NCBI RefSeq assembly: GCF_003790525.1
Contig: NZ_CP033635.1
DNA from: Escherichia coli
GTDB taxonomy: Bacteria > Pseudomonadota > Gammaproteobacteria > Enterobacterales > Enterobacteriaceae
Length of the DNA: 64,000 nucleotides
Reading direction: 5' to 3' (one strand)
Part shown: one piece after another, positions 37,006 to 39,947 of the stretch
How the letters are laid out: every line of letters starts with the position of its first letter
Position numbering within the stretch: the stretch's first letter is position 1
Program-made: the position numbers and the translations under genes
Notes under the pieces: model-generated
What the model saw: only the letters and a program-made list of their open reading frames with translations
What the model was told of the DNA's origin: nothing
Database searches by the model: none

Positions 37006-37227
37006 TCACCATGCCTCCGCCTTTACAGGTAAACCATCACGACCGAGGAAGACTTTAATCATGCGGTCAGTAATGCATGTTTTTGTAGTGAAATCACGGA
37101 TATAAAGTTTTTGCTTTTCGATATTGTTTGCCGATGCAACATATGTCCGGCCTTCGTAAATAACGTAATCGCCGGGAGTGACGCACTGGCGTGGTATTTC
37201 ATCGGTTCCGAAGTGATGAGCAATCAT
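37006..37227 (-). CDS. hypothetical phage protein
   Basis: 73 aa ORF with strong RBS aaggag 7 nt upstream of ATG. Confidence 0.55.
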
Positions 37228-37272: not shown

Positions 37273-37818
37273 CTATTTAATACTCAGCAACTGCTCGACG
37301 GTCATATTTTTAATTGCGCCCCGGTTTATGAGAGTCCATCCCTGCTTTTCCAGATAAAAACGGAAAGTATCCAGAGTACAGACCAGTGCGCCATCAGGAA
37401 CGGTTTCGGTGAATTTGATGTAGCCGTGTTCGTCGAAGCGGATAACCAGGGTGTGGTCATCACCCGGGATTATTTTGTCAGCGGGTGTGGTGTTATTCCG
37501 GCGCAGTTCTTCCTCCATGCGGTCGAACTCGGCAATGTAGGCTTCCTTGAATGCAGCGGCTTTTTTGCCGGTGAAGCCCATCACCAGGAAAACGAAGCCG
37601 TTTTTGGTGATTTGGTAGGCATTGTAGGTATTGCCACGGTGCTCGAATTTAACCCGCGAAAAGTTGCTGGTTAAAAAGCGTTCAGAACATTCGAGGGCTT
37701 CTATTTTTTGAACAACATGGTGATGCTGCTTGCCGAAGAATTCTGCGATCGCAATAGACGTAGTGACAGCGCGACCATTTTCAATGGTTACGTCAGGGTG
37801 AGAAAGGGTAGTAGCCAT
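37273..37818 (-). CDS. Rha-family phage regulatory protein (antirepressor-like)
   Basis: start placed at MATTLSHPD (RBS gagga); N-terminal Rha motif GRAVTTSIAIAEFFGKQHHHVVQKIE; frame stays open upstream to 38115. Confidence 0.7.
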   Translation of the reverse strand: MATTLSHPDVTIENGRAVTTSIAIAEFFGKQHHHVVQKIEALECSERFLTSNFSRVKFEHRGNTYNAYQITKNGFVFLVMGFTGKKAAAFKEAYIAEFDRMEEELRRNNTTPADKIIPGDDHTLVIRFDEHGYIKFTETVPDGALVCTLDTFRFYLEKQGWTLINRGAIKNMTVEQLLSIK

Positions 37819-38298
37819 GATGGCATCCTCAAGTGTTAAGTTAATTAACTCACCACCGAGGCTTTCCACGACCATAAGGGTGGCGAGACGTACAGGGGTG
37901 GAAATACCGGTCACTCGAGAACCCGGCCAGCCTTGCAGCTGCCCTGCACGCCCCACCATTATCTGAATGTGGCTGTGCTTAACGCATAAAAAAACCGCTT
38001 CGGCGCGGTTATGCGCTCGAGTAACTTTCGGGTTTCCACGCCCGGCACCCGTTTTATGAGGTGCAGGTGCACTATAATTCCACCCGTACTGGTTTTCAAT
38101 AGCTACATTCAACATTTTCTCTTACCTTTCATCACCGAAGTGAACTTTGTTGATGCGGTGCCAGGTGCCTCCAGGTGACGTTAACCAGTTAACAATTAAC
38201 GCCGGATACAGAGAATCCACCCATAACACTGTTTTTGGTTTTAACTGTTCCGCGTGCGCTGAGCCGCATTCACCACATCACAAAATTCACTTTAAAAA

Positions 38299-38349
38299 GG
38301 GCGGCAGAGCAGTCACGGAGTAAAACTGATACCGCCACGTCACCAGAAA
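38299..38349 (-). ncRNA. dicF: DicF-like small RNA
   Basis: minus strand reads tttctggtgacgtggcggtatcagttttactccgtgactgctctgccgccc, near-identical to the remembered Qin DicF sequence (2-nt difference), followed by a T run. Confidence 0.6.
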
Positions 38350-38540
38350 ATTGATAACAGAGGGCGTTGCAGCGGGGTTGTCACTCAGGCGCATGGTCAA
38401 CCTGACAACCCGGTGTCCTCAAGGGGAAGGGAACCCCGCCATGCTTACCGCCGCGCGCTTTCGTGTTGTGTGCCTGCTTTTAACCACGTCAGGCGAGGTG
38501 GTATCCTCTGAGGGGTCTGTTACCCGAGAGGAAATTGGTT

Positions 38541-38741
38541 ATGAATACAATCAAGTTTTCTTGCCCAGAATGTGGTGGCGAAGTCTTCGACACATCCTTT
38601 AAGCCGCAGGGCTCTGACAGTTTCGCGGGAGCCATCTGCAAAAATTGTGGTCACCTTGTAACTGAAGATGAGTCCTCGCAATTCGATGAGGAAATCGTTG
38701 ACAATATCTTCGGTGTAATCACCGGAGCCTTTCTGAAGTAA
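38541..38741 (+). CDS. small zinc-ribbon protein
   Basis: 66 aa with two CxxC pairs (CPECGG ... CKNCGH) and acidic tail; RBS gagagg; an overlapping minus-strand ORF (38520..38876) is a competing call. Confidence 0.4.
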   Translation: MNTIKFSCPECGGEVFDTSFKPQGSDSFAGAICKNCGHLVTEDESSQFDEEIVDNIFGVITGAFLK

Positions 38742-39060
38742 AGGCACATACCGCTTAGTTACCGCTCTGATAATTCTTACCTGTCCGGCAATGGCGCTGA
38801 TGTCAATATAAAGCGCCATTGCTGCTTCTTTGCCGATCCCGGGATGCCTTCCATTCTGATGTTTGACTTCGCCCACTGAGAAATCCTCTGTTTCCCCTTA
38901 ACGCCGGGGTAGCGGAACAAAAACCTGCTGCATAGTTAAAGTTAAACCCTGCCGTCATGTTCATACGCCTCGGGCTGGCTACTTAACCCCTGACCACTGC
39001 CTGGTAACTCGAAGTATTGCCCTGCGTTCTGTGGGGCGGGGTGGGTTGGTATGAAAGAAA

Positions 39061-39100
39061 GGATACCCATGGGTATCCAAAAAGTAAATACCCATGGGTA
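39061..39100. promoter_or_regulatory. operator palindromes downstream of the repressor gene (OL-like)
   Basis: perfect 18-bp palindrome GGATACCCATGGGTATCC and a second TACCCATGGGTA 11 bp away. Confidence 0.6.
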
Positions 39101-39144
39101 ATTTTTTTTGATGTATCTTAACTGGTGACTGGTTGTTTGGTGAG

Positions 39145-39564
39145 TTATGATGCGTTTTGTGCTTTCTTTTTACGGATTTCTTCGTAGATCATATTGTAAT
39201 ACTGTTTTTTCTCTTCAAGAGTTTTTAATAAGTTATCCGCTTCACTTTCAGGCAGTTCGTCTAAGAGATCTAAAAAAATACGTTGTCGTGGCGTTAGAAC
39301 CCTTGTTTCATAATTGGAGGCTGTGTTCGTTGATGATGAAACGATACCATCCATCCATCCCCGGGGTAACCCAAAGGACTCTTCTATAATCTCCACCATA
39401 TCATCAGCGATCCGTTTTTTTCCTTTTTTCCCCTCTGGGTACAACATTCTTGATACATAAGAAGGCTCGCGACCGATCTTTCTGGCCACGTTAACCGCTT
39501 TACCATCGCATTTCTCATCACGAATTTTGATGAGTTGTTGTCGTCTAAATTCATATTTGTCCAT
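39145..39564 (-). CDS. prophage repressor (HTH, RacR/DicA-like position)
   Basis: start at MDKYEFRRQQL (listed ORF starts further upstream at a TTG inside the operator region); divergent from the cro-like gene. Confidence 0.7.
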   Translation of the reverse strand: MDKYEFRRQQLIKIRDEKCDGKAVNVARKIGREPSYVSRMLYPEGKKGKKRIADDMVEIIEESFGLPRGWMDGIVSSSTNTASNYETRVLTPRQRIFLDLLDELPESEADNLLKTLEEKKQYYNMIYEEIRKKKAQNAS

Positions 39565-39583
39565 AGGTAAATAATAGATGCGA

Positions 39584-39638
39584 TTACCGCAAGGTAAACA
39601 ACCCAAGGGTATTGACTTTTGTTTACCTGTGGGTATTC
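39584..39638. promoter_or_regulatory. divergent promoter/operator region between repressor and cro-like gene
   Basis: three related palindromic sites TTACCgcaaGGTAA, ACCCaaGGGT, TACCtgtgGGTA sharing half-sites with the sites at 39061-39100. Confidence 0.55.
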
Positions 39639-39665
39639 TTTTGCTGTGTTTACTAAGGAGTAGCT

Positions 39666-39947
39666 ATGGAAGAATTAAGAATATTTCTCAATTCTCTTTC
39701 GTCAGATGAACAGCGTATGTTTGCATGTGAGTGTGGTACTAGCATCGGTTATCTAAGAAAGGCATTGAGTAAAGGTCAAATGTTAGGGGCATCGTTATGT
39801 GTCCTTATTGAGCGAGCCAGTAATGGTGAAGTTACACGTCAGCAACTAAGGCCTTTTGATTGGATGAATATTTGGCCCGAGCTGGAAGATACCAAAACGT
39901 TAACACAACCACTTACTAGGAGCTTGATTCATGAAAATCAAGCATGA
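39666..39947 (+). CDS. Cro-like transcriptional regulator (YdaS family)
   Basis: 93 aa, RBS aaggag, divergent from repressor, similar to Rac YdaS. Confidence 0.7.
   Translation: MEELRIFLNSLSSDEQRMFACECGTSIGYLRKALSKGQMLGASLCVLIERASNGEVTRQQLRPFDWMNIWPELEDTKTLTQPLTRSLIHENQA

Follow-up and report, generated by a model that had tools for sequence, protein, structure and literature searches.

The window analysed here, a 64-kb stretch of Escherichia coli DNA (contig NZ_CP033635.1), is a Rac/Qin-like lambdoid prophage. Within it, a 66-amino-acid (aa) zinc-ribbon open reading frame (ORF) on the plus strand lies opposite a minus-strand ORF of 99 or 118 aa. Comparison of homologous loci makes it fairly likely that both ORFs are real protein-coding genes on opposite strands, sharing codons in the register known as sas13. 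Both frames were shown in the homolog alignments to be intact and, judging from their substitution patterns, under purifying selection across genera. The preliminary description of the locus, made from the sequence alone, had held that at most one of the two was likely to be real. The homolog comparison did not support this: each frame appeared to be under purifying selection when the other was held constant, and a conservation pattern backing one frame only was looked for and not found. As far as the searches show, the dual-coding relation and its link to the sieB/sas region of lambdoid phages have not been described before; both protein families are already in databases. The evidence, all of it comparative, is of moderate strength and comes from a single short locus.

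Direct reading of the sequence bore out the preliminary description of both ORFs, of the ribosome-binding site of each and of the two CxxC pairs. The elements of the overlap are:

38541 (ATG) to 38739-38741 (TAA), plus strand: zinc-ribbon ORF, 66 aa, beginning MNTIKFSCPECGG, with cysteines at positions 8, 11, 33 and 36.
38527-38532, plus strand: AGAGGA, Shine-Dalgarno sequence of the zinc-ribbon ORF, 8 nt before the ATG, read directly.
38520-38819, minus strand: conserved core of the minus ORF, 99 aa (MALYIDISA...PLG) from ATG 38819; the first early-left ORF after the repressor.
38876 (GTG) to 38520-38522 (TAA), minus strand: long form of the minus ORF, 118 aa.
38884-38889, minus strand: AGAGGA of the long form, 7 nt before the GTG, read directly.
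38820-38876, minus strand: possible N-terminal extension of the minus ORF with a GTG start, MGEVKHQNGRHPGIGKEAA, giving the 118-aa form.
38742-38819, minus strand: the part of the minus ORF outside the zinc-ribbon ORF, about 26 codons; a clean test region for minus coding.

In the ORF listing the plus ORF begins earlier, with TTG 38535, which gives 68 aa. The cysteines of the plus ORF form the pairs C8/C11 and C33/C36, and homologs carry GGAGG or AAGGA at the same spacing from the zinc-ribbon start as AGAGGA here. The plus ORF is wholly nested within the minus ORF and the two are codon-aligned, with plus position 1 opposite minus position 3 and position 2 opposite position 2 (sas13 is the OLGenie name). 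In this register only the sense codons TTA, CTA and TCA yield antisense stops. Together these account for 2.5% of codons in the long ORFs of the window, and the antisense frame of a 66-codon gene would consequently be open with P ~0.19. The overlap in a single sequence was therefore unremarkable, and the question had to be settled by comparing homologs. The same figure is consistent with a different and rather unlikely explanation, namely that the zinc-ribbon gene alone is real and that the minus ORF is a persistent shadow in a stop-poor, codon-aligned frame that mirrors sense conservation.

The start of the minus ORF that is conserved among homologs is probably ATG 38819, which gives the 99-aa form. 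An N terminus reading MGEVK from the GTG is common to the E. coli clade and to one locus found through the minus protein (L090), which also has a Shine-Dalgarno sequence. The extension (38820-38876) is far more variable than the core and is frame-shifted in P0018-type alleles, so that GTG 38876 is a possible start and ATG 38819 the probable one.

Relatives of the plus protein with 56-65% identity were found in Citrobacter, Klebsiella and Enterobacter. In the DNA of loci retrieved via the plus protein (L004-L009), the minus ORF was open over 93-174 aa. In the DNA of relatives of the minus protein (L090-L092), the plus ORF was exactly 66 aa long, with the four cysteines and a Shine-Dalgarno sequence. 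Both ORFs are also present in phages KP12 and ST974-OXA48phi18.2 of Klebsiella. Both were intact in every deeply diverged lineage checked and in 44 of 48 unique modules; the other four had a nonsense mutation in the plus ORF only, and the minus frame was open in all 48. Every enterobacterial lineage also had a purine-rich Shine-Dalgarno sequence and a minus start in DNA outside the zinc-ribbon gene, which argues against the minus ORF being a shadow of that gene.

The codon-aligned antisense frame was open past the zinc-ribbon stop in four metagenomic members. One of their contigs, at 40% G+C, had this frame open and the other two antisense frames full of stops. An N-terminal motif, TLxFxFDxxxL, was similar in the minus frame of three loci (L094, L101 and L102) where the sequence extends; the contig of L095 ends 35 nt beyond the zinc-ribbon stop. 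In Citrobacter freundii (L007, L008 2995-3519, minus strand) the minus ORF was fused in frame to an upstream ORF to give 174 aa, with no stop between them, and the usual minus start survives inside the fusion, with its GGAGG and ATG.

Stop codons were counted against expectations computed from the observed rates of the matching classes of change. The test was repeated without L090 and L091 because both had been found through called minus proteins.

Minus frame, overlap: 0 stops observed, 8.7 expected (P 1.6e-4).
Minus frame, outside the overlap: 0 observed, 4.2 expected (P 0.015).
Minus frame, overlap, without L090/L091: 0 observed, 6.6 expected (P 0.0014).
Minus frame, outside the overlap, without L090/L091: 0 observed, 3.0 expected (P 0.048).
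Continued plus frame, outside the overlap (control): 4 observed, 4.2 expected (not significant).
Plus frame, overlap: 3 observed, 5.2 expected (not significant).

Codon-usage weighting lowered the expected number of plus-synonymous stop-creating changes from 5.5 to 2.4. This roughly halves the plus-synonymous part, and a fair overall figure for the minus frame is therefore 0 stops observed against about 9-13 expected. Together with the neutral behaviour of the continued plus frame outside the overlap, this figure is difficult to reconcile with a minus frame that merely mirrors the zinc-ribbon gene. The sole TCA in the set was codon 2 of L004 and L005, where it serves as the minus ORF's own stop.

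No minus-frame stop allele occurred among the 48 unique modules. Two independent plus nonsense alleles were found, in four E. coli haplotypes. E14* (GAA to TAA; window equivalent 38580) changes F to L in the minus frame, and E44* (GAG to TAG; window equivalent 38670) is a silent Leu change there. The minus ORF is intact where the plus gene has a nonsense mutation, and this too speaks against its existing only as a reflection of the plus gene. Plus nonsense alleles circulate in E. coli prophages (L022, L031 with 14 loci, L042 and L157).

The alignment used for substitution analysis was gapless over 93 codons, and changes were classified by parsimony on a neighbour-joining tree. Within the overlap (63 codons), variable sites at minus positions 1, 2 and 3 numbered 44, 14 and 33, these being plus positions 3, 2 and 1. 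The plus third position was the most variable in the overlap, which favours the zinc-ribbon frame and counts towards the zinc-ribbon gene being the only real one. Over the 25 codons beyond the zinc-ribbon ORF, counted in the divergent clade, the corresponding numbers were 9, 10 and 20, with the minus third position the most variable, and omega was 0.56-0.63 for the minus frame versus 0.79-0.86 for the continued plus frame. Changes in the overlap had a rate of 0.24 when non-synonymous in both frames (NN), 0.33 when non-synonymous in plus and synonymous in minus (NS), and 0.58 when synonymous in plus and non-synonymous in minus (SN). The dNN/dSN ratio of the plus frame was 0.37-0.42.

In an event test, the BLOSUM62 cost of the changes was compared with that of random synonymous mutations of the same transition/transversion class in the same ancestor. 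Plus-synonymous changes were conservative in the minus frame (z 4.9-5.3; 3.5 with a codon-usage-weighted null) and in no other frame (|z| < 0.9 for the other four), which would not be expected if the minus frame were non-coding. Minus-synonymous changes were conservative in the plus frame (z 5.25-5.75; 4.4 (4.39) with the codon-usage-weighted null), and in this reverse test one correlated plus-strand frame responded too (z 3.9). Outside the overlap, the minus frame gave z 3.5-3.9 and the continued plus frame z 1.0-1.7. A regional split placed the peak of mutual constraint over the zinc-ribbon core, where the NN rate was 0.13 and z was 4.5 in each direction. In a more conservative, per-column version of the test with circular shifts, the plus frame gave rho 0.35 (P ~0.004).

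Particular plus codons were retained against local codon preference. The plus frame used CCA (Pro) in 12 of 12 cases where the minus frame reads Trp (local codon usage 0.23), ATA (Ile) in 9 of 9 where it reads Tyr (0.11), and GTA (Val) in 12 of 13 where it reads Tyr (0.17). Retention of this kind is a further argument against a minus frame without a product of its own. Plus-synonymous variation occurred where the minus change is mild: V/I, E/K, A/T and S/T, and synonymous L/L and R/R. The minus-frame selection signal was moderate, not overwhelming.

If only the zinc-ribbon gene were real, the conserved stretch past its stop would be a 3' stem-loop or terminator of its mRNA and not the N terminus of a protein. 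A stem-loop is predicted at this position:

38786-38824: 13-bp stem-loop (CGGCAATGGCGCU ... AGCGCCAUUGCUG), 45 nt past the zinc-ribbon stop, containing the minus ATG 38819.

The structure is predicted on both strands, and eight of its pairs are conserved, three with compensatory changes. Core pairing was better on the plus strand (83/88 vs 73/88 cells), the outer pairs favour the minus strand, and all pairs together are ambiguous (102 vs 99 of 121). On the zinc-ribbon mRNA it could serve as a 3' stem-loop; on the minus mRNA it could instead occlude the start. A compensatory hairpin, slightly better on the plus strand and covering the minus start region, speaks for the zinc-ribbon gene alone, as do the lower omega of the plus frame (0.42, against 0.75 for minus), the poor AlphaFold modelling of the C-terminal half of the minus protein, the lack of a minus start in L102, and the current naming of the plus ORF by the Prokaryotic Genome Annotation Pipeline (PGAP). 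However, the third-position variability and the omega of 0.56-0.63 outside the overlap span 25 non-overlapping codons, well past the ~35-nt hairpin, which speaks against that explanation.

The plus protein matched the ECs_2282 family of NCBIfam (NF047912) with 57.1 bits (E 1.2e-15) over profile positions 1-53 of 60, above the curated cut-off of 37 bits. A profile search gave 80 representative clusters of divergent zinc-ribbon relatives of ~65 aa, in which none of the four cysteines varied, and all 19 tested members of those clusters matched NF047912. Zinc binding is putative, and the family name itself says so. The match to Lar (TIGR03655; 16.2 bits, E 0.01) fell below the 39.6-bit cut-off; a weak resemblance to TIGR03655 was seen in 7 of 19 family members (best E 3e-6). 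The PADLOC candidate PDC-M14A was matched weakly and in part, with E 0.0015 and 16.9 bits for the window protein and E 2e-6 for a distant member (P0077), both matches covering only positions 18-80 of the 152-position profile. The 194-position profile phrog_4852 also matched (E 1.5e-9; searches with window 38541-38738 and P0077). Given the matches to PDC-M14A and phrog_4852, longer proteins may carry a related zinc ribbon as their N-terminal domain. No SieB family match for the plus protein was found in Pfam, NCBIfam or PADLOC, and a literature search on ECs2282, ECs_2282 and Z2044 returned no relevant paper.

The minus protein, read from ATG 38819, matched phrog_21318 (E 1.2e-61, 206 bits), with residues 1-98 on positions 1-98 of 99, and its homologs extend down to ~35% identity. 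A contig scan with the minus-protein alignment produced 26 pattern matches, none of them confirmed. AlphaFold modelled the minus protein with a predicted local distance difference test score (pLDDT) of 63.6, only an N-terminal helical hairpin (residues 8-53) reaching scores of 75-82, and the plus protein, without metal, with pLDDT 56.5, as short strands and a C-terminal helix. Profile searches for solved structures gave no informative relative of either protein.

Public records differ in the strand they annotate. In strain TUM1886, which has an identical locus, PGAP names the plus ORF 'ECs_2282 family putative zinc-binding protein' (L001 3192-3392, plus strand). In strain GF60, where both proteins are identical to those of the window, it annotates only the 99-aa minus ORF (L183 1056-1355, minus strand). 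Since PGAP picks opposite strands in these two genomes, each record carries one gene only. Strain E2863 has a frameshifted minus-strand 'hypothetical protein' in PGAP, and the GenBank records of phages Evi, PPompW, KP12 and ST974-OXA48phi18.2 annotate the minus strand. The locus is thus a concrete annotation problem, in which the same pipeline assigns identical sequence to opposite strands in different genomes.

Records of the latter kind, in phages and in some PGAP genomes, would suit the converse explanation, that the minus gene alone is real and that the zinc-ribbon family, this ORF included, consists of annotation artefacts mirroring a conserved minus protein. This is very improbable. Also in its favour are the full coverage of the minus ORF by phrog_21318, plus nonsense mutations in ~10% of sampled E. 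coli loci with a plus stop rate (3 vs 5.2) not significantly low, and the pLDDT of 56.5 for the plus protein. However, C8, C11, C33 and C36 did not vary among 53 aligned members whose columns average ~25% identity. The preliminary description had proposed that cysteine conservation be compared with synonymous-site patterns. The Cys codons (TGY) read GCA or ACA (Ala/Thr) on the minus strand, and the four-fold third base was A in every lineage. On this alignment only the plus frame explains the constant A; the Cys codons fix minus four-fold sites. The plus ORF was exactly 66 aa with a strong Shine-Dalgarno sequence in 12 diverged lineages, its length and start being constant in all lineages, and the conservative effect of minus-synonymous changes in the plus frame (z 4.4-5.75) likewise indicates a real plus gene. 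In addition, distant members have a complete zinc-ribbon ORF and a truncated or startless minus ORF, and the zinc-ribbon gene shares a dedicated conserved leader with sieB.

The leader lies immediately upstream of the zinc-ribbon ORF and comprises:

38470-38531: sas/sieB-leader-like element, a near-invariant 32-nt block (38470-38501) followed by hairpin 2.
38483-38502: hairpin 1, within the 32-nt block.
38505-38531: hairpin 2, whose 3' arm is the zinc-ribbon Shine-Dalgarno sequence.

In the predicted fold of hairpin 2, CCUCUG is paired with GAGAGG, and covariation in alignment A7 supports the stem (CTCG/CGAG, CTTGG/CCAAG, CCTCT/AGAGG). The 32-nt block was present in 142 phage records. The lambda copy (J02459 34395-34428) lies immediately upstream of the rightward sieB ORF, and the P22 sas RNA sequence given in PMC13397905 has the identical block as its 3' part. 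According to the literature, sas is an antisense RNA that switches sieB translation in P22. The block and hairpin 2 together align with the lambda sieB upstream region and P22 sas. Because of its position antisense to the left operon and the shared leader block, the zinc-ribbon gene is placed, on sequence grounds, in the slot that sieB occupies in lambdoid left operons, behind the leader element that sieB has there. The pair of hairpins downstream of the minus ORF was considered as a put-type antiterminator RNA of the HK022 kind; this was rejected because Rfam gave no match and the element proved to be sieB-leader/sas sequence.

The leader also raises an explanation in which RNA is the main working product of the locus, in the form of a sense-antisense pair of the sieB-leader/sas type, with both ORFs incidental. 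The identity of the upstream element to the 3' part of P22 sas RNA, the conservation of two hairpins by covariation, and the surrounding regulatory RNAs (DicF, IsrK and C4) are consistent with it. However, such a pair would not predict frame-specific, amino-acid-aware substitutions in exactly two frames, nor the avoidance of stops, nor invariant Cys ligands. The sas-like element is also almost wholly outside the zinc-ribbon ORF and touches only the last few minus codons. This explanation is likewise very improbable.

Several observations weigh against coding by both strands. The dNN/dNS ratio of the minus frame was 0.69-0.75, indicating weak constraint inside the overlap. In the per-column test the minus frame gave rho 0.29 with P ~0.01-0.02, which is only moderately significant, and because rho was as high as 0.375 (P ~0.04-0.07) in the control, a frame outside the overlap, the test is only moderately discriminating. 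The fall in expected stops under codon-usage weighting belongs with these points. All counts are parsimony counts over saturated deep branches at one short locus, and part of the sampling was made via called minus proteins (L090-L092). The minus ORF lacks a canonical start in L102, and in L101 and L094 it ends early, inside the zinc-ribbon N-terminal region. AlphaFold confidence was low for both proteins, and the stem-loop at 38786-38824 overlaps minus N-terminal codons and could add to their conservation. Finally, lambda has no minus-strand ORF of at least 40 aa spanning sieB, indicating that an antisense gene is not general to the slot.

The surroundings of the two ORFs in the window are:

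39144-39563, minus strand: repressor gene.
39064-39100: 16-bp perfect inverted repeat (TACCCATGGGTAT...ATACCCATGGGTA), between the repressor gene and the cassette formed by the two ORFs.
38299-38348, minus strand: DicF, intact (Rfam, 65 bits).
38146-38229, minus strand: dicB remnant, marked as truncated by PGAP.
37273-38115 (region), minus strand: IsrK and C4 RNAs, then a Rha-family ORF.
38025-38077, minus strand: c4-a1b1.
37988-38064, minus strand: IsrK, full-length Rfam match (67.2 bits).
37876-37963, minus strand: C4 antisense RNA, full-length Rfam match (73.8 bits).
37006-37227, minus strand: kil.
Left of kil: RecE-like exonuclease.

The repressor gene, the minus ORF and DicF are all on the minus strand, in agreement with the preliminary description, which had placed the minus ORF in the orientation of the repressor-to-DicF unit. 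It had also noted that Qin carries ydfABC at this position, and related prophages do carry ydfC, or ydfB and ydfC, in or beside it. The cassette follows the repressor in the left operon of most prophages and follows cro in the right operon in L004 and L005. The minus ORF was co-oriented with the early operon every time, in PL-side and PR-side contexts alike. A promoter and terminator scan of 38100-39800 gave nothing above chance level for either gene. A candidate extended -10 sequence, TGgTATCCT (38499-38507), is not claimed because lambda and P22 lack it. The inverted repeat at 39064-39100 was scored as a 'terminator' and as a spurious mir-2041 match; it looks like an operator half-site pair at the early-left promoter.

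The 280-aa ORF at 37273-38115, named 'Rha family' by PGAP in the identical locus, spans the C4 and IsrK matches. Because the ORF crosses these matches, its N-terminal third is probably the leader RNA of an antirepressor module of the P1/Gifsy type, and the true start is likely to be an internal Met (MATTLSHPDV...). The C4-IsrK-Rha module appears to have replaced the remainder of dicB next to DicF. Distant zinc-ribbon members in metagenomic contigs (L101 1867-2823, L102 1394-2338) adjoin IS1595-family transposase genes, with no obvious prophage immunity region. Because of this association, it is suggested that the cassette may move independently of lambdoid phages.

Each partner has counterparts in known systems. 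Like the members of NF047912, the plus ORF is about 66 aa long with a CxxC...CxxC arrangement and scores above the family cut-off; the family entry assigns no function and, unlike the pair described here, holds nothing on an opposite-strand gene. The 99-position profile of phrog_21318 is matched end to end by the 99-aa minus ORF, and in PHROGs this family is an ordinary single-strand gene whose complete overlap with a zinc-ribbon gene is unrecorded. Small CxxC...CxxC proteins of the Lar/Ral type (TIGR03655) are encoded in the same operon region with weak sequence resemblance, but lambda ral is co-oriented with PL, whereas the zinc-ribbon gene is antisense to PL.

The closest parallel in position is the sieB/esc/sas system of P22 and lambda, which has in common with the present locus a gene that runs antisense to the PL operon and lies between kil and the first genes of the early-left region, a conserved upstream block and a second hairpin. 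The gene products differ: lambda SieB is an unrelated 184-aa ORF product compared with the 66-aa zinc ribbon here, Esc is an in-frame product of sieB and not a protein of the antisense strand, and lambda has no long minus-strand ORF opposite sieB. Exclusion is known for sieB, whereas the zinc-ribbon gene is not known to confer it.

The pair also resembles the antisense overlapping genes of E. coli O157:H7 and Pseudomonas (nog1/citC, ano/ECs2385, laoB, asa, pop/ompA and olg1/olg2), in which an ORF is likewise embedded antisense and pipelines keep one of the two. In the reports retrieved, those genes are described as evolutionarily young, novel or lineage-restricted, and the evidence rests mainly on expression data. 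The present pair differs in being conserved across genera and beyond, in its sas13 register and in purely comparative evidence.

A mechanism is proposed because of the position, the orientation and the sieB/sas parallel. By analogy with sieB, the zinc-ribbon gene would have a promoter of its own and be read against the left operon, probably in the lysogenic state. The minus gene would depend on the early promoter under repressor control and be switched on by induction or infection. The mRNAs would be fully complementary and transcription convergent, so that expression of one would antagonise the other. The pair may link lysogeny and lytic growth as one coupled module, for instance with one protein as an exclusion-type factor and the other as its counter-factor.

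A bolder proposal, and an improbable one as it stands, is that the mirror-encoded proteins are an ancient functional pair, such as a prophage exclusion or abortive factor and its early-expressed counter-factor. If this were true, the pair would have been inherited together by force of shared codons, and its expression would be mutually exclusive between lysogeny and lytic growth via convergent transcription and mRNA complementarity. Shared coding might also let the two proteins bind each other. The locus would then reproduce the sieB/esc/sas logic with two proteins and be a case of deeply conserved bacterial sense-antisense dual coding.

Two conserved frames on opposite strands of ~300 bp are rare and are usually missed by annotation. 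Antisense overlapping genes in bacteria are contested, and this pair is a well-placed candidate: it is short, each partner has a database family, and its conservation reaches beyond E. coli to Klebsiella, Citrobacter and Enterobacter as well as to metagenomic relatives. Either gene can be disrupted without the other by a change of one base. G38670T, which occurs naturally, stops the zinc-ribbon gene only (E44*; silent Leu in the minus frame), and G38678A stops the minus gene only (Arg codon to stop; zinc-ribbon S46 silent). The analysis also ties an uncharacterised zinc-ribbon family to the sieB/sas cargo slot, which in P22 and lambda holds a superinfection-exclusion gene.

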